The position numbers and the translations under genes are program-made. Below, piece after piece: positions 4,133 to 21,177 of a stretch of 21,415 nucleotides of DNA. Numbering within the stretch: position 1 is the first letter of the stretch; each line of letters opens with the position of its first letter. A model generated the notes under the pieces. It ran no database searches. It worked only from the letters and a program-made list of their open reading frames with translations, and was not told where the DNA came from. Origin of the DNA: a virus (lineage: Duplodnaviria > Heunggongvirae > Uroviricota > Caudoviricetes); IMG/VR virus record IMGVR_UViG_2778261463_000013, positions 1 through 21,415 of that record. One strand, given 5' to 3'.

Positions 4133-4909
4133 TTAACCACGTTTCGCCTTCGCTTTCGCCTTCGGCGTCGTGGTCTGTTCTCTGGTTGTATCTTTCTGTG
4201 CCGCAGGCTCCTGTGCGGCAGCGGCTTCATCCTGTCCGGCCTTTTTCAGGGCCCGTGAAAGCGTGGCAATCTCACGTTTTACCCCCGCATTCGGGTTAAG
4301 GTGCATTGCCTCACGGAACAGCTTCAGACTCACCGCCATGCTGTCGGCATCGGTCAGGCCACGACGGGCAAAGGCGCATGCCTTGCACAGCTTGGCGCGG
4401 ACCTCATCGGGCATGTCCCGGTTCGCGACAATTTGCCAGAGGGTGTCCAGCGGTTCGATGTAGCCGGACAAATCGGCGTGTGCATCCGTTCCGGCCTGTG
4501 TCAGAACAGGGTTGCAGATTTCCTCGGTCAGTACCGTGGCTGCCGTACGCCCGAAGTTGTCAGGCATCGTGAGGTTGTGGCGAACCACATAATCCCCGAT
4601 GCGCAGTGCAAGCGCCAGGTCGCCACAGTCCACGGCCCACACCATGAGTGTGGCTATCACCTCATCCTGCTGTCCGCCGTCGGCTTCCAGCGTGCCGTCT
4701 ATCCAGCCTGCAAAACCCGGCAGCATTTCACGCTTGAGCGCGGCCTTTGCCGCTTTTGCCTGGACGCCCTTTATGCGTTGCTGTGCCAGGCGCAGACGGT
4801 GAAGGACCTGCTCATGAGCCGTGCGGGCCACGATATCCTCGTTTTCTGCTGCCGTTCCTGCCCGTAAAGCCATCACGTGCTGGAAATGAGCCTGTGCCGG
4901 TGTCAGCAT
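4133..4909 (-). CDS. M: Terminase small (endonuclease) subunit, P2 gpM-like
   Basis: 258-aa ORF with ...MPDEVRAKL... region resembling P2 M as recalled; directly downstream of N with a 2-bp gap. Confidence 0.8.
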   Translation of the reverse strand: MLTPAQAHFQHVMALRAGTAAENEDIVARTAHEQVLHRLRLAQQRIKGVQAKAAKAALKREMLPGFAGWIDGTLEADGGQQDEVIATLMVWAVDCGDLALALRIGDYVVRHNLTMPDNFGRTAATVLTEEICNPVLTQAGTDAHADLSGYIEPLDTLWQIVANRDMPDEVRAKLCKACAFARRGLTDADSMAVSLKLFREAMHLNPNAGVKREIATLSRALKKAGQDEAAAAQEPAAQKDTTREQTTTPKAKAKAKRG

Positions 4910-16040: not shown

Positions 16041-16595
16041 TCAGTCCGGTAGCAGTTCGCAAAGCACGGTGTCAGCGGCGGTATATCGTGCGTAAAGCCG
16101 GGCGAGGACCCATCTTTTAAGGGATATCCCGGTCGTGTCCCGGATGTACTTTCTGATTTCGCTGAATGTCATCCCCTGTTCATCGCGCAGTTCAGTTACC
16201 AACTCCACCAGGTGATCGCTGTATCTGGCTCTGTGGTGGAGTTCCCCGTATTTCCTGAACCGGTACCCTCTTTTTCTCAGGTTCAGTCCCACCGTGGATG
16301 TCGAGCGCCCCAGTTCATTCGCGAGTTCCCGGATGGTTTTTGTGTGGCGATTCCTGATGAGCGTGTTGAGTTCTTTTGTATTCAGGGGGGGGTGTTTGGT
16401 GTGGATAACCCCCTGAGAGAGCAAAAGACGGATGCGGCTTCGTATTGCTGGCCCGGTTCTCTGAAAGTGTTTTGTCAGTTCTGGTACGGTGTGGGAGGGG
16501 TATAAACCGACCAGTAGAGCATCTTCCTGTTGTGTCCAGGCTCTGACATGCTTCGGTGGTACACCTGATACACCCATAGGTTTAAGTGCGGGCAT
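16041..16595 (-). CDS. Predicted DNA-binding protein with three HTH-like segments (184 aa)
   Basis: ATG at 16595 with GGAGA SD; segments ...TVPELTKHFQRTGPAIRSRIR..., ...TIRELANELGRSTSTVGLNLRKRG..., ...TFSEIRKYIRDTTGISLKRWV... fit HTH patterns, reminiscent of paired HTH domains of transposase N-termini or GcrA/Myb-like regulators. Confidence 0.55.
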   Translation of the reverse strand: MPALKPMGVSGVPPKHVRAWTQQEDALLVGLYPSHTVPELTKHFQRTGPAIRSRIRLLLSQGVIHTKHPPLNTKELNTLIRNRHTKTIRELANELGRSTSTVGLNLRKRGYRFRKYGELHHRARYSDHLVELVTELRDEQGMTFSEIRKYIRDTTGISLKRWVLARLYARYTAADTVLCELLPD

Positions 16596-16829
16596 AGTTG
16601 TTCTCCGTTGTTCTGTTTTGTGTCGGGGTAATGGTCCGGTTTTTTCGCCTTCAACCGGAAAAGAAGGGCGTGTTAGCATTGATGAATCCGCCGTTCAGTG
16701 GATCTGGCGGACACTTTGTTCAACACGCCCGGGGGTAAAGATGTCTGGCTGCAAAAATTCCACGAGCCAGGTTACCCTGCACTCTGCGCTGATTAGGGGC
16801 AGAGCGATGACGATGAGGGATAAAACACC

Positions 16830-17312
16830 ATGCAAAACAACCAACGTAAAAAATCGAGAGAACGGGATGAGGTCATGTTCCGTCTCTGGTACAGCTACTG
16901 GCTGGAGCGCATCGCGGCGGTGTTCAATCGTCGCCTTGATGCGATCATCAACATTTTGATCCTTGCGGCGGGTGCGTTCATCGTAGCCGGCTGGCATTTC
17001 GGCTGGGTGCTGGGGGCAGTGGTGGTGGTTCTCGGAGCCTGTAATTTCATATGTCGTTTCGGGCAACGTGCGCAGGCGGCGAGTGAGCATGCCCATCGCT
17101 ACAATGAGTTGATTACCAAAAGCGCCCTCCTCAGTACGGAAGCTCTGCTGGCACGCCTTCCAGAGCTTGAGATGCATGACTCTCCTGTCCTGGAATGCAT
17201 GGAAAATGTGGCGTACAACAAAGCCTGTATGTCTCTGAATATCAGTCATCGTGAATCTCTCTCTTTCGCTGAAAAGATGATGGCTGCCATTACGATCGGT
17301 TTGTCCCGATAA
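16830..17312 (+). CDS. Hypothetical membrane protein (160 aa), lone plus-strand gene inside the minus-strand early region
   Basis: GAGGGA SD upstream of the ATG at 16830; hydrophobic stretch IINILILAAGAFIVAGWHFGWVLGAVVVVLGA; overlapping minus-strand 211-aa ORF judged spurious. Confidence 0.5.
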   Translation: MQNNQRKKSRERDEVMFRLWYSYWLERIAAVFNRRLDAIINILILAAGAFIVAGWHFGWVLGAVVVVLGACNFICRFGQRAQAASEHAHRYNELITKSALLSTEALLARLPELEMHDSPVLECMENVAYNKACMSLNISHRESLSFAEKMMAAITIGLSR

Positions 17313-17351
17313 GTGCCCTGCGTGTGTCATCTGACGCTCGCCATGTTCCCG

Positions 17352-17564
17352 TCAGTCGTTCGGGTTTATGACGTAATCCACGACGTTTTCCACGCGGCGG
17401 CGTAATTCCCTGTGTATCTGGCCTGGTGTTGCTGGTTCGCCCGGTTGCCCCAGGCCTGCCACAAAATCGTCGATTTCACTCATAAGCAGGTTGCGCATTA
17501 CGGCGATATGGTGACGCGCCTCTTTGCCTGGTCTGCGTGCGTTGGTATCGTGTTTGCTGCTCAT
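17352..17564 (-). CDS. Hypothetical protein (70 aa)
   Basis: ATG at 17564 overlaps the upstream stop (ATGA); GAGG SD upstream. Confidence 0.45.
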   Translation of the reverse strand: MSSKHDTNARRPGKEARHHIAVMRNLLMSEIDDFVAGLGQPGEPATPGQIHRELRRRVENVVDYVINPND

Positions 17565-17770
17565 GTTCTTACCTCGCTTATTATCTCGAGTTCGCGCCAT
17601 GACTCTGTCAGGACGGTTATCTGTGACCCGTCCGTCAGGTGGACGTAAATCAGTTCGTCACCTGCCGGGCATCGGGTGGTGGTGGCTATGACACTGCTTT
17701 CCACTTCGTATTCCATCCCGGATGTATCGGTAAAAAGCGTTTTATTGCGTCTTCTCAGAATTGCAGTCAT
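17561..17770 (-). CDS. Hypothetical protein (69 aa)
   Basis: GAGGG SD 8 nt upstream of the ATG at 17770. Confidence 0.5.
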   Translation of the reverse strand: MTAILRRRNKTLFTDTSGMEYEVESSVIATTTRCPAGDELIYVHLTDGSQITVLTESWRELEIISEVRT

Positions 17771-17780
17771 GGTGTGGCCC

Positions 17781-18074
17781 TCAGTGCATTCGTGATGACG
17801 TGCCAGCCTCAGTGCTCTGAAGCTGACGTCTGAGGTTTTTCAGCTCCTGAGCCAGCCTGATGTTTTCTTCCCGGAACTCAGAAAGCGCCTGCACGGCAAG
17901 GGCGATGGCTATCGCTTCTGTCTGGTGCATCATGGCTAATAATATTTCTTCCGGATGTTCCATTAATTCACGGCTTAGTTTGTTTTTTTTCTTAATTAAT
18001 TTGTTTGTGCCTTCGATTATTTTGTTGACCTGTTCACTGTTATCAATGATTCGGTTTTTTTTATTATTAAGCAT
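17781..18074 (-). CDS. Hypothetical protein (97 aa), Lys/Asn-rich N-terminus, coiled-coil-like, in a markedly AT-rich segment
   Basis: Strong AAGGAGA SD 8 nt upstream of the ATG at 18074; local AT-richness at 17940-18070. Confidence 0.55.
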   Translation of the reverse strand: MLNNKKNRIIDNSEQVNKIIEGTNKLIKKKNKLSRELMEHPEEILLAMMHQTEAIAIALAVQALSEFREENIRLAQELKNLRRQLQSTEAGTSSRMH

Positions 18075-18154
18075 TCCTGATTTCTCCTTTTTGAGCGGGT
18101 CAACCCCTCCGCGTGAGCGGATGTTTCTGGTTGTTTCTGGTGTTAAACGCCTGT

Positions 18155-18280
18155 TTATTTACGGCGCTTATCGCCAGTAAATAACGATTCAATGGTGTTA
18201 ATGCTGTTAATTACCCGCATAATCCCCACAGCGTAAATAATGGCAAGGATAAGAATTAACCATGACATAAATACGCTCAT
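18155..18280 (-). CDS. Small hydrophobic peptide (41 aa), single predicted TM helix with basic C-terminal tail, translationally coupled to the upstream gene
   Basis: ATG at 18278-18280 overlaps the stop of the 80-aa gene (ATGA); translation MSVFMSWLILILAIIYAVGIMRVINSINTIESLFTGDKRRK; below the ORF-track size cut-off. Confidence 0.35.
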   Translation of the reverse strand: MSVFMSWLILILAIIYAVGIMRVINSINTIESLFTGDKRRK

Positions 18281-18519
18281 GCTTCCTCCTGAATTACAAA
18301 GGGGGTTATTACGTTTCCTTCAGACAGGTCTTTATTAATGGCCTGTAATTCCGTCAGAGCTTCATTATCTCCGGAACCAAAGGCGCAACAGGTCAGGCCC
18401 TTGATTGCTGTAGTCAGTGCTGCAAGTGAAACAGCGTCACCGTTAGTGCCACGGCTTGTAAGTCCGTAATGGTAATTCTGAAGCGCGTGGTTAATGAGTT
18501 CTTTATAGGCTCTTTTCAT
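18277..18519 (-). CDS. Hypothetical protein (80 aa)
   Basis: AGAGG SD 8 nt upstream of the ATG at 18519. Confidence 0.5.
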   Translation of the reverse strand: MKRAYKELINHALQNYHYGLTSRGTNGDAVSLAALTTAIKGLTCCAFGSGDNEALTELQAINKDLSEGNVITPFVIQEEA

Positions 18520-18557
18520 CTTGCTGCCTCTTCTGTCTTATTAAGACTCCTTTTGCC

Positions 18558-18896
18558 TTAGTAGTCGGTATGCTGAAAGCTGCGCCCCTCGATTAAGCGG
18601 TCGGCAGTTCGCAAGGCTTCGTGCAGTGTGAAATCCTGTCCGAACTGATTGTCGCCGCTGCTCAGTGCAAAAATGCGGTTTCCGGTAAACGGATTGCGGT
18701 GGCATCTGTGGATCACGAGTCCGGCCTGCTCAATCAGCCAGGTGTGTTGACCAGTCTGTTTTACAGCATGACCGCCCGGTGTTGCGTGTGTCTCGCTCAG
18801 GCTGTAGCGGGAGTTACTACGTGATGCACTGGTAGCGAAACGGTTAGCGTGACGTTCAGCACCATTACGAAAGCGTGAATTACGTTGCTGTTTCAT
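18558..18896 (-). CDS. Hypothetical protein (112 aa)
   Basis: ORF in operon orientation; weak SD. Confidence 0.45.
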   Translation of the reverse strand: MKQQRNSRFRNGAERHANRFATSASRSNSRYSLSETHATPGGHAVKQTGQHTWLIEQAGLVIHRCHRNPFTGNRIFALSSGDNQFGQDFTLHEALRTADRLIEGRSFQHTDY

Positions 18897-18920
18897 GTTA
18901 AAGACTCTGTACAGATTTAA

Positions 18921-19004
18921 TTATTCCGGCATAGCGGCGAACTCAAAATATTTGCGATTAAATCGCATCGCATTGTGTTCACGTTTTGCGGACTGCTGGT
19001 TCAT
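18921..19004 (-). CDS. Possible 27-aa basic peptide with strong SD
   Basis: GGAGG SD 9 nt upstream of the ATG at 19004; translation MNQQSAKREHNAMRFNRKYFEFAAMPE; very short, could be chance. Confidence 0.2.
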   Translation of the reverse strand: MNQQSAKREHNAMRFNRKYFEFAAMPE

Positions 19005-19147
19005 TTTCGTTTGCCTCCGCACATGAGAATTACGCCGCTTAAGAGGTAACCGAAGTTAATTGATAGTATTACAATTAACATAAGGTCCAATTTGTCCATG
19101 CCACACATAATTACCCTCATTGCAGTAGTTGTGGTTTATCAGGTTTC

Positions 19148-19354
19148 TCACCCGATAAACCAGATAACAAACGCTATAAACATCGCCCCAATAGCTGCCG
19201 GGAAAAGTCCTTTGGTATAAGCGGCGATATATTCAATGCTGAGTTCAATAAAGCGTTCTTCATGTCCCGTTAACTTACGAAACAAATAGATCGCTATTAC
19301 GCCTATCTCAATAAAAACAAGTGTCAGAATGGCGCTGATGATATTGCTGGTCAT
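19148..19354 (-). CDS. Small membrane protein (68 aa, two predicted TM segments)
   Basis: Hydrophobic segments IISAILTLVFIEIGVIAIYLF and AAIGAMFIAFVIWFIG; begins 8 nt after the Cox-like stop. Confidence 0.45.
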   Translation of the reverse strand: MTSNIISAILTLVFIEIGVIAIYLFRKLTGHEERFIELSIEYIAAYTKGLFPAAIGAMFIAFVIWFIG

Positions 19355-19362
19355 TTTCGTGT

Positions 19363-19884
19363 TTAGCCGGGCTGGTTGTTTTTGAGTTGCTCCAGTTTTG
19401 AAACTCTGGGGGAGTAAACCTGCTTACCTTTAACGGTCTGGCAGTCCTCCTTGTTTGCCGGTGAAAACTTTCTTTTCTTGCGGTCGTACGTCCAGTAGCT
19501 TTTCCAGTTGTGCCACTCTGGCGGTTCGCACTCCAGTAGTTCGTCGGCTAGTTCGTCCCAGGCTTTGGCGTTAAACCACCATGTACCGTCTGACTTTTCA
19601 TCTTCGGGATTTGAGCGCGTTTTGTGACCCGGCATCTGCCCGCGCTGAATGGCGGCGCGTAGCGCAGATTTTGTTACCCCCAGATAGGCAGCCCCTTTTT
19701 CCAGTGACACAAGTCCTGCGACTGGGCCGTCCAGTCGTAGGGTTGCGCCCTTTTTGTAGGACGGTCTGGTTTTGGTTTCCAGGTGTTCGTTGTCGTTGGC
19801 AGCTTCAATGAATTCATTGTCCGCGCCATCATCCTGAACCGGTTGAGCGCCAGATAACTCTTTGTCGGCAATAATCTCCCGCAT
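19363..19884 (-). CDS. Cox/AlpA-like excisionase-family HTH protein with extended termini (173 aa), divergent from C
   Basis: AGAGGA SD 8 nt upstream of the ATG at 19884; central region ...AYLGVTKSALRAAIQRGQMPG...GTWWFNAKAWDEL resembles the P2 Cox / AlpA HTH pattern; position as in P2. Confidence 0.55.
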   Translation of the reverse strand: MREIIADKELSGAQPVQDDGADNEFIEAANDNEHLETKTRPSYKKGATLRLDGPVAGLVSLEKGAAYLGVTKSALRAAIQRGQMPGHKTRSNPEDEKSDGTWWFNAKAWDELADELLECEPPEWHNWKSYWTYDRKKRKFSPANKEDCQTVKGKQVYSPRVSKLEQLKNNQPG

Positions 19885-19920
19885 TTGTTATCCTCTTGCA
19901 TTGGTGCGCTTGTTGCGCCT

Positions 19921-19964
19921 TTTGATGATTTTTGATGACTTGTAAAGATAACCGTACGGTTATC
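19921..19964. promoter_or_regulatory. Lysis-lysogeny switch operator region: direct repeats TTTGATGA x2 (10-bp phased) and perfect 18-bp palindrome GATAACCGTACGGTTATC
   Basis: Read directly in the 103-bp intergenic region between divergent Cox-like and C genes; P2 C binds directly repeated operator half-sites (established knowledge). Confidence 0.5.
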
Positions 19965-19987
19965 TTTTGTAGGAGATTAATCCCCAA

Positions 19988-20329
19988 ATGAGTATCTTGT
20001 CAATAGACTATGCGAAAAAGTTGCGTTTGATACGCAAGACGGAAGGGCTAACTCAAAAGCAATTTGCTGATATTACAGGGTTATCTCTGGCAACTGTCAG
20101 GAATTATGAGTCAGGGCAAAAGATCGCCAGAGCAAAGATTGTTGAGGCCGTCCTTCAAGTGGATCGGTTTGAAAAATATATGTTCTGGTTAATCAAAGAT
20201 AAGACGCTACCTGTTGCCGGTCAGATCGCCCCGGCTCTCTCTCTTGATGGCTCCACGCAGTCGGAGGACGATCAGGTTTCAACCCGCAATACCCAAAAAT
20301 CACCCCAATCAGGCCGCAATGCTGGCTGA
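19988..20329 (+). CDS. C: Immunity repressor, P2 C-like (HTH)
   Basis: 113-aa ORF, AGGAGA SD; HTH segment LTQKQFADITGLSLATVRNYESG; C-terminal GQIAPALSLDG...SPQSGRNAG resembles the P2 C C-terminus as recalled. Confidence 0.8.
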   Translation: MSILSIDYAKKLRLIRKTEGLTQKQFADITGLSLATVRNYESGQKIARAKIVEAVLQVDRFEKYMFWLIKDKTLPVAGQIAPALSLDGSTQSEDDQVSTRNTQKSPQSGRNAG

Positions 20330-20398
20330 CGCTGTATATTGAACGGGCGGCGTTCAGTAAGCAGGGGTTAACAGGTTTATCCGTCGGAGGTGCTGATC

Positions 20399-21177
20399 AT
20401 GTCGATTAAGCAACTCAAAGACGGACGTTATCAGGTTGATGTAAGGCCTCAGGGGGCGGGAGGAAGGCGGATTCGTAAGATTTTCACCCTGAAATCAAAG
20501 GCGCAGGAATTCGAAAGATACGTTCTTCAGAATTTCCACAATAACCCGTGGCAGGCAAGGCCCGCCGATCAACGGCGGTTATCAGAACTGATTGAGGTGT
20601 GGTGGATGCTTGATGGTCGTAATCAGGCATATGGTGATACCTACAGAACCAGACTGGAGAAGGTGATACGTGAAATGGGGGACCCGCGCGCCAGCCAGAT
20701 GACACGAAAATTCATGATTGAGTATCGCTCGGATAAGTTGCAGGCGGGACTGATGCCGTCCAGTATCAATCGCGACCTGTGCGCCTTATCTGCGATGTTT
20801 TCGTTGTTAATTGACGCGGAGGTTTATCATAACGAAAACCCTGTGCGCGGAATACGTAAACTCAAGGTTCAGAATACAGAAATGGCCTTTCTTTCAGATG
20901 ACGAGATTGATCGCCTTCTGAAACGGCTTGAGGGTGATGCACGACGCATTGCCATTCTGTGCCTTTCGACCGGGGCCAGATGGAAAGAGGCGTCAACGCT
21001 TCGCGGGGAACACATCGTGGGTAACAGGGTGACGTTCTTTAACACAAAGAACGGGAAATCGCGCTCGGTTCCTGTAGCTGATTCCGTTGTGCCGTTAATT
21101 AAAACCCGCCGGACCGGCCTGTTATATCAGGTTGATTATCTCAGTTTCAGGGAGATCCTTCAGGAGGTGAAGCCCGA
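20399..21177 (+). pseudogene. int: Tyrosine integrase, P2 Int-like, 3'-truncated (similarity lost after ...KPDL)
   Basis: ATG at 20399 (MSIKQLKDGRYQVDVRP...) with GGAGGTG SD; matches the P2 Int N-terminal and central pattern (...SSINRDL..., ...IAILCLSTGARW...); the C-terminal catalytic segment is missing and the frame continues into unrelated sequence. Confidence 0.8.

Follow-up and report, generated by a model that had tools for sequence, protein, structure and literature searches.

Does the 41-codon hydrophobic open reading frame (ORF) that follows an early gene of a P2-family prophage encode a Hok/Ldr-type membrane toxin, as the original prediction suggested by analogy, or is it an ordinary small gene of such phages? 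The DNA analyzed here, hereafter the window, is a stretch of 21,415 nucleotides. It carries genes for a P2-type major capsid protein, a GPO scaffold, both terminase subunits, a portal protein and a GPA replication protein, and also encodes Cox, a helix-turn-helix repressor and an integrase adjoining dmsA. The window is a P88-like (Xuanwuvirus, Peduoviridae, P2 family) prophage of Escherichia coli, and its closest phages are P88-like Xuanwuvirus members. The parts of the early region that concern the peptide gene are the following:

19363-19884, minus strand: cox (Cox domain at residues 56-129)
18558..18896, minus strand: DUF4761 gene (Pfam PF15958, E = 2.4e-58), the first member of the cassette
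18277..18519, minus strand: 80-aa DUF4754 gene (Pfam PF15946, E = 1.7e-10; phrog_2549), directly upstream of the peptide gene
18285..18290, minus strand: AGGAGG Shine-Dalgarno sequence, 4 nt 5' of the peptide ATG and within the last DUF4754 codons
18277..18280, minus strand: ATGA overlap of the peptide start codon (ATG at 18280-18278) with the DUF4754 stop codon (TGA), a translational-coupling geometry
18155..18280, minus strand: 41-aa peptide gene, stop codon included (MSVFMSWLILILAIIYAVGIMRVINSINTIESLFTGDKRRK), delineated from the ORF listing, homologues, AlphaFold2 and annotation; its product comprises a hydrophobic helix (about residues 3-21), a near-invariant R22, an amphipathic helix (23-35) and a DKRRK end
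15002-12492, minus strand: replication gene A

Read 5' to 3' on the minus strand, the early block runs from cox through a gene for a 68-aa membrane protein, a short unannotated region, DUF4761, DUF4754 and the peptide gene to a 97-aa gene, after which come two small genes, a 160-aa membrane protein gene on the plus strand, further genes and, last, replication gene A. A candidate early promoter, Pe (TTGACA-16-ATTAAT, read by eye), lies upstream of cox; internal promoters are also possible. The order DUF4761-(optional gene)-DUF4754-peptide is common to P88, phiSM, P884B11, PhiR44_2, Chuche, O157:H7 and metagenome contigs. Gene order thereby places the peptide in a conserved DUF4761-DUF4754-peptide cassette within the early (Cox-side) block of P88-like P2-family prophages.

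Several other features of this prophage are recorded here in their own right. Its Cox-family protein, at 173 aa, is about twice as long as those of phiSM, P884B11 and Chuche (95 aa); that of P88 has 141 aa. Between the repressor gene and cox, by the candidate early promoter, a perfect 20-bp palindrome found by eye (AGATAACCGTACGGTTATCT, 19946-19965) is a likely operator. A second small hydrophobic ORF (19120-19001, minus strand; 39 aa, or 35 aa from the start annotated in relatives; ...MCGMDKLDLMLIVILSINFGYLLSGVILMCGGKRK) has a basic tail and an ATGA overlap with the following short ORF (19004-18921, minus strand). This pair is absent from the RefSeq annotation of the prophage and is annotated, with near-identical sequence, as gp42/gp43 in Xuanwuvirus P884B11 and also in PhiR44_2; the second ORF is shortened in the window relative to P884B11. 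The predicted 160-aa membrane protein (16830-17312, plus strand) matches phrog_6315 and, below threshold, a SLATT domain (E = 0.006). Its gene faces against the early operon, the arrangement expected of an independently expressed accessory (moron) gene, and the first terminator-like site after it on the plus strand is a conserved hairpin at 18108, which is described below. Finally, at about position 4136/4137 the terminase small-subunit gene has a tail-sheath gene as its immediate left neighbor. The nearest RefSeq prophage has about 13.7 kb between these points, occupied by head completion, X, lysis, baseplate and tail-fibre genes, and the window's junction occurs in no complete E. coli genome. 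The window prophage has probably arisen by deletion, unless the contig was joined wrongly; with about 13.7 kb of late genes seemingly missing, this copy of the peptide may never be productively expressed.

Taken by itself, the peptide ORF does not rise above chance, as the surrounding 2.5 kb holds 35 ORFs of at least 25 aa; conservation is what sets it apart. Its GC content of 37% is the same as that of the other small membrane ORFs nearby and matches a composition rich in Ile, Leu, Phe, Asn and Lys. P88-type relatives have a weaker Shine-Dalgarno sequence than the window (GGGGA) and a longer spacing to the start. RNA folding around the start codon was no better than in shuffled controls, and no structure sequestering the ribosome-binding site was predicted (z = +0.77). 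Residues 3-21 form the most hydrophobic 19-residue stretch of the product (mean Kyte-Doolittle value, 2.58), and an AlphaFold2 model built from a 22-sequence alignment shows one continuous helix from residue 2 to residue 35 (mean pLDDT, 82) with a disordered KRRK end. The peptide, which has no cysteine in the window, is predicted to insert in the inner membrane. The uncharged N-terminus before the helix and the net positive tail suggest, by the positive-inside rule, that two or three N-terminal residues lie outside and the C-terminal tail in the cytoplasm.

Conservation was assessed in 44 related loci (five isolated phages, two genomes, 27 viral contigs and 10 assembly contigs). All 44 carry, at the same place, an ORF for a hydrophobic peptide of 30 to 50 aa that starts one base before the DUF4754 stop; the overlap reads ATGA in 43 of them and GTGA in the other, where the A-to-G change still gives a start codon. 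Synteny and start geometry extend across Escherichia, Citrobacter and Salmonella elements. The original prediction had thus correctly described a small single-pass peptide gene with one helix and a KRRK end, coupled to the upstream 80-aa early gene by an overlap of start and stop; non-conservation in related elements had been named beforehand as refuting, and a homologue is present at every locus compared.

The divergence among these homologues is informative as well. Searching with blastn, we found no DNA similarity between the window and P88 over DUF4754 and the peptide gene, whereas tblastn aligned the peptide to the P88 type over 41/41 residues at 51 to 54% identity (E = 3e-8 to 9e-8). Overall protein identity to P88-type peptides is 49 to 54%, against only 33% for DUF4754, and E-values of the profile search for the gp07-like family reach 1e-19. 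Nei-Gojobori estimates against P88-type genes give a dS of 1.0 to 1.9, a dN of 0.33 to 0.44 and a dN/dS of about 0.2 to 0.3 for the peptide gene, with a dN of about 0.8 for DUF4754. With 24 distinct peptide sequences pooled, the annotated frame has a pN/pS of 0.36 and the other five have values of 0.49 to 2.0; the annotated frame is also the only one open across the family. Within the P88 type, the pN/pS of the peptide gene (0.34) equals that of DUF4754 (0.32).

It could still be argued that the frame stays open owing to some other conserved DNA or RNA signal and that the ORF makes no functional protein. Within the P88 type the pS of the peptide gene is 0.18, about half the 0.39 of the adjacent DUF4754, which hints at additional constraint on the nucleotides or at recent recombination; alleles with frameshifts or truncations are common, and a conserved noncoding element lies just downstream of the gene. 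However, the annotated frame has by a clear margin the lowest pN/pS, and the window and P88-type peptides are still about 50% identical although synonymous sites between them are saturated. The Salmonella version, at 36% identity, keeps the architecture (FSW motif, helix and Arg after the helix). Further, the start codon and the overlap are always kept, and the truncations spare residues 1 to 28. We consider the noncoding explanation most improbable and regard these patterns as those of a real protein-coding gene under purifying selection.

The gene is neither overlooked nor rare. Contrary to the expectation that automated annotation would miss it, PGAP calls the ORF (WP_024211217.1) in every RefSeq copy examined, and the P88 homologue is annotated as gp07, “membrane protein” (YP_009113050.1). 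P88-type copies occur in 1,391 of 5,426 complete E. coli genomes and window-type copies (at least 90% identity) in 27 of the same 5,426; carriers include O157:H7 and ST131 strains. Profile searching yielded 129 clusters (90% identity), almost all of them of Escherichia origin. An exhaustive HMMER scan of 1.84 billion representatives returned 20 matches, all in the gp07-like family, indicating that the family is narrow and without detectable distant relatives. A word-indexed search with the single peptide found only seven close relatives, and it took a mixed alignment to recover the family; a contig scan with the window DUF4754 protein alone found no relative, and an alignment-based scan only two. 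The peptide matched nothing in Pfam (E ≤ 1), NCBIfam (E ≤ 0.1), PHROGs or PADLOC, and for the gp07-like family we found no Pfam or PHROG model and no solved structure. No informative PDB match came from sequence searches with the peptide, DUF4754 or DUF4761. No functional information was found in the literature on Xuanwuvirus, DUF4754, the peptide sequence or accession, P88 or phiSM, and a CFT073 Ribo-seq preprint held nothing relevant to the peptide.

Across the family, M1, F4, S6, W7, L10, I11, A17, G19, R22, I24, K28, I30, E31 and F34 are invariant or nearly so, and the conserved A/S13, A17 and G19 give a small-xxx-small spacing within the membrane helix, which is better conserved than the tail. 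Conservation in residues 22 to 36 has a periodicity that peaks at 105 degrees per residue, and the hydrophobic moment of this segment was reached by 196 of 5,000 shuffles for the window peptide and by 70 of 5,000 for that of P88. The alpha-helical periodicity of both conservation and hydrophobicity suggests that the tail is an amphipathic helix. Three C-terminal forms exist: one of 37 aa that terminates in FFTGE, the 41-aa form of the window with its KRRK end, and one of 45 aa. The P88 type stops four codons before the 41-aa class, with TAA in place of a Lys codon, and the 45-aa form arises from a one-base slip in a T run. The KRRK end, found in 17 of the 92 clusters of the set and only in the 41-aa class, is real but class specific, and the window allele belongs to this rarer class. 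Truncated alleles have 30 or 34 aa; one of those with 34 aa is present on 388 contigs with the early region otherwise intact. As an observation on how such alleles arise, the C-terminus has been remodeled repeatedly by one-base slips in T5-6 and A6-7 runs, which produced established 45-, 34- and 30-aa forms in early regions that are otherwise intact. Loci with remodeled peptides include the following:

L007, 2501-2638
L031
L047, 3001-3105

The constrained core of the peptide comprises about residues 1 to 28.

One alternative is that the peptide is a type I toxin of the Hok/Ldr kind. On that reading, an antisense RNA would control a peptide that damages the membrane and so stabilizes the prophage or makes infection abortive. 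In its dimensions, its one hydrophobic helix and its basic C-terminus, the peptide does resemble type I toxins, described as proteins of <60 aa with one transmembrane helix, some of which stabilize prophages (PMC12648545). The opposite strand also offers a promoter-like site at 18040-18067 and terminator-like hairpins at 18108-18121 and 18139-18151. However, what defines a type I system is an antisense RNA directed against the mRNA of the toxin (PMC8309996; PMC12648545), and the search for antisense signals that had been proposed along with the Hok/Ldr analogy gave no Rfam match at E ≤ 1 over 16500-20500 and no promoter-like site over the peptide gene in three lineages. The consensus scans, which a noncanonical RNA might escape, covered the window, P88 and locus L041; in the window they found promoter-like sites at a chance count (5 found versus 3.8 expected), and in P88 and L041 they found none facing the peptide gene. 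An RNA starting at 18040-18067 would end at about the peptide stop codon, covering the ribosome-binding site of the neighboring gene and not the peptide, and the terminator-like hairpin on the antisense strand would stop antisense transcription short of the peptide gene. The start inside DUF4754 leaves no room for a promoter or structured leader of the gene's own, and its Shine-Dalgarno sequence has no predicted sequestering structure. The operon is also expected to be silent in lysogens, the wrong logic for postsegregational killing. Neither Hok/Gef, Ldr nor any other toxin family was matched in Pfam (E ≤ 1) or NCBIfam (E ≤ 0.1), and PADLOC gave no match. The analogy drawn in the original prediction is not borne out, and we judge a toxin of this type very unlikely; it appears highly probable that the locus encodes a genuine hydrophobic peptide with one helix and is no Hok/Ldr system. 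A holin or other membrane protein of a lysis cassette was considered separately and rejected, since the gene lies between cox and replication gene A and not in the late region; a near-identical prophage has its lysozyme and LysC genes about 14 kb away, after gpM-L-X.

DUF4754 lies directly upstream of the peptide gene in every context examined, and we infer from the ATGA geometry that the two are coexpressed from the same operon. An AlphaFold2 model of DUF4754 is a three-helix bundle (pLDDT, 87.2; helices at residues 3-23, 25-49 and 52-66), for which a fold search of the PDB returned nothing beyond designed proteins and helical bundles of a generic kind (E ≥ 1). Small peptides encoded in the operon of their partner are an established pattern, exemplified by UgtS (34 aa, with UgtL) and CydX (37 aa, with CydAB) (PMC12648545). 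With moderate confidence, we favor the view that the peptide is an early-lytic inner-membrane protein whose production is coupled to that of DUF4754 and which works through helix-helix contacts as the membrane-bound partner of DUF4754; the element of partnership with DUF4754 specifically is tentative. The peptide gene would be transcribed with the early operon from a promoter upstream of cox, so that its product would be made early in lytic growth and be silenced by the repressor in the lysogen. Ribosomes coupled from DUF4754 would translate it, and both proteins would appear together. The peptide would then enter the inner membrane, with its short N-terminus outside and its positive tail in the cytoplasm, and would act through helix-helix contacts and not as a free-standing addiction toxin. 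Serving the soluble DUF4754 bundle as a partner or anchor in the membrane, it might direct the pair to the host envelope or to a membrane-associated target.

The main competing possibility is that the peptide modulates a host membrane protein alone, with DUF4754 a mere neighbor; it could, for instance, inhibit cell division, act in superinfection exclusion or block a transporter or kinase. Binding to larger membrane proteins is a common mode of action of single-pass peptides of such length (PMC12648545). The conservation of the small-xxx-small positions and of a helical face would agree with such a role, the stronger conservation of the membrane helix than of the tail would suit an intramembrane target, and the peptide is better conserved than DUF4754. 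On the other hand, the invariant 4-base overlap and the strict co-occurrence with DUF4754 suggest a shared function, and family, PADLOC, HMMER and PDB searches revealed no similarity to any characterized modulator. We consider a stand-alone modulator somewhat unlikely. The coinheritance of adjacent DUF4754 and peptide genes is nevertheless no proof that the products bind each other, and the widespread 45-aa and 30/34-aa alleles indicate that the tail is not strictly required, which weakens the idea of the tail as a docking surface. Two sets of observations that might have spoken to the partnership were set aside. DUF4754 “long forms” of 103 to 116 aa, examined as possible DUF4754-peptide fusions of the Rosetta-stone kind, proved to be frameshifted into the wrong frame or error-ridden. 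At an O111:H- locus a truncated replication gene comes immediately after DUF4754; this locus is a decayed remnant and was rejected as a clean natural knockout of the peptide.

The region just downstream of the peptide gene contains a second conserved element and then changes abruptly in content, as the following features show:

18075..18154, minus strand: spacer from the peptide stop to the start of the 97-aa gene, holding the hairpin and the ribosome-binding site of the 97-aa gene
18108..18121 (flanks at about 18095-18135): conserved palindrome or hairpin that separates the peptide gene from the variable slot, TCCGC-N4-GCGGA when read on the minus strand
17781..18074, minus strand: 97-aa Lys/Asn-rich gene in a variable slot downstream of the cassette and outside the conserved module

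The first half of the 97-aa gene has a GC content of 29%, compared with 52.6% for the whole window, and no homologue was found among 50,697 phage records. In relatives, the same slot holds unrelated genes of 67, 136, 92 or 77 aa, with at least five unrelated fillers in all. The suggestion of recent foreign acquisition therefore fits this neighbor, on the strength of its low-GC half, its variable slot and its lack of a phage homologue, but not the peptide gene, which sits in the conserved cassette. The hairpin element, GAAAAC-A-TCCGC-N4-GCGGA-GG-TATTCGCACAC with an invariant GG, is present in 41 of the 44 loci, the Salmonella element included; its loop is variable and its stem nearly invariant. 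Covariation in the stem amounts to one C-G to T-A double change, so that a hairpin structure and a conserved palindrome are indistinguishable. A T-rich run follows the hairpin on the strand opposite the operon, where the element is terminator-like in three lineages; on this plus strand it resembles a weak intrinsic terminator. The switch in gene content between unrelated alternatives sits just past the hairpin. It might terminate transcription of the antisense strand, bind a protein as a palindrome, serve as an RNA processing site or mark a recombination boundary. If the hairpin is an antisense-strand terminator, antisense transcription would be kept out of the peptide gene.

Extending the favored reading of the peptide as a membrane-bound partner of DUF4754, one may speculate that the two proteins form a two-part, membrane-directed device of P88-like phages for host takeover or exclusion, with the hairpin perhaps acting as an antisense-strand terminator that protects the cassette against convergent transcripts where a recombination junction lies. 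As an example, a three-helix protein tethered to the inner membrane early in lytic growth might block division, an envelope process or incoming DNA. We regard this extension as unlikely. As the cassette is found in about a quarter of complete E. coli genomes, such a device, if real, would represent a very common uncharacterized phage function. If the pair does serve a membrane-directed early function, it would supply a defined module for the poorly understood early regions of P2-family phages. phiSM lysogenizes K-12 strains (PMC6456863), which makes the DUF4754-peptide pair easy to study.

In sum, the peptide is an ordinary, common and already annotated small phage membrane protein, and nothing supports a Hok/Ldr-type toxin; this check removes both the toxin-antitoxin label and the idea of an unannotated gene. 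The window peptide falls in the length range of Hok/Gef and Ldr and, like them, has a single hydrophobic helix followed by charged residues, but the family searches gave no match, the gene has no room for its own promoter or leader, the scans found no antisense RNA, and the gene sits in a phage early operon. Further, Hok proteins are about 50 aa long, with long C-terminal extensions that may contain cysteines (PMC12648545), while the window peptide has a tail that is predicted to be cytoplasmic and lacks cysteine. The P2 early operon (cox-orf78-B-orf80-83-A) is similar to that of the window in beginning with cox and ending with replication gene A. A putative rho-independent terminator is annotated after B, so that a hairpin lies between early-gene blocks as in the window, although the P2 hairpin has its T run on the sense strand and the T-rich side of the window hairpin is on the antisense strand. 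P2 has no hydrophobic peptide there, its Orf78 being basic and soluble, and has neither DUF4761 nor DUF4754. Like UgtS, CydX and KdpF, the window peptide is a single helix of 30 to 40 aa encoded in the operon of its presumed partner; it differs from them in having no sequence relationship, in belonging to a phage early operon and in that the partner would be a small soluble three-helix bundle and not a membrane enzyme or kinase. The P88 gp07/Xuanwuvirus family resembles the window peptide in position, in the ATGA overlap with DUF4754 and in helix architecture, the P88 type being four codons shorter and ending without KRRK.
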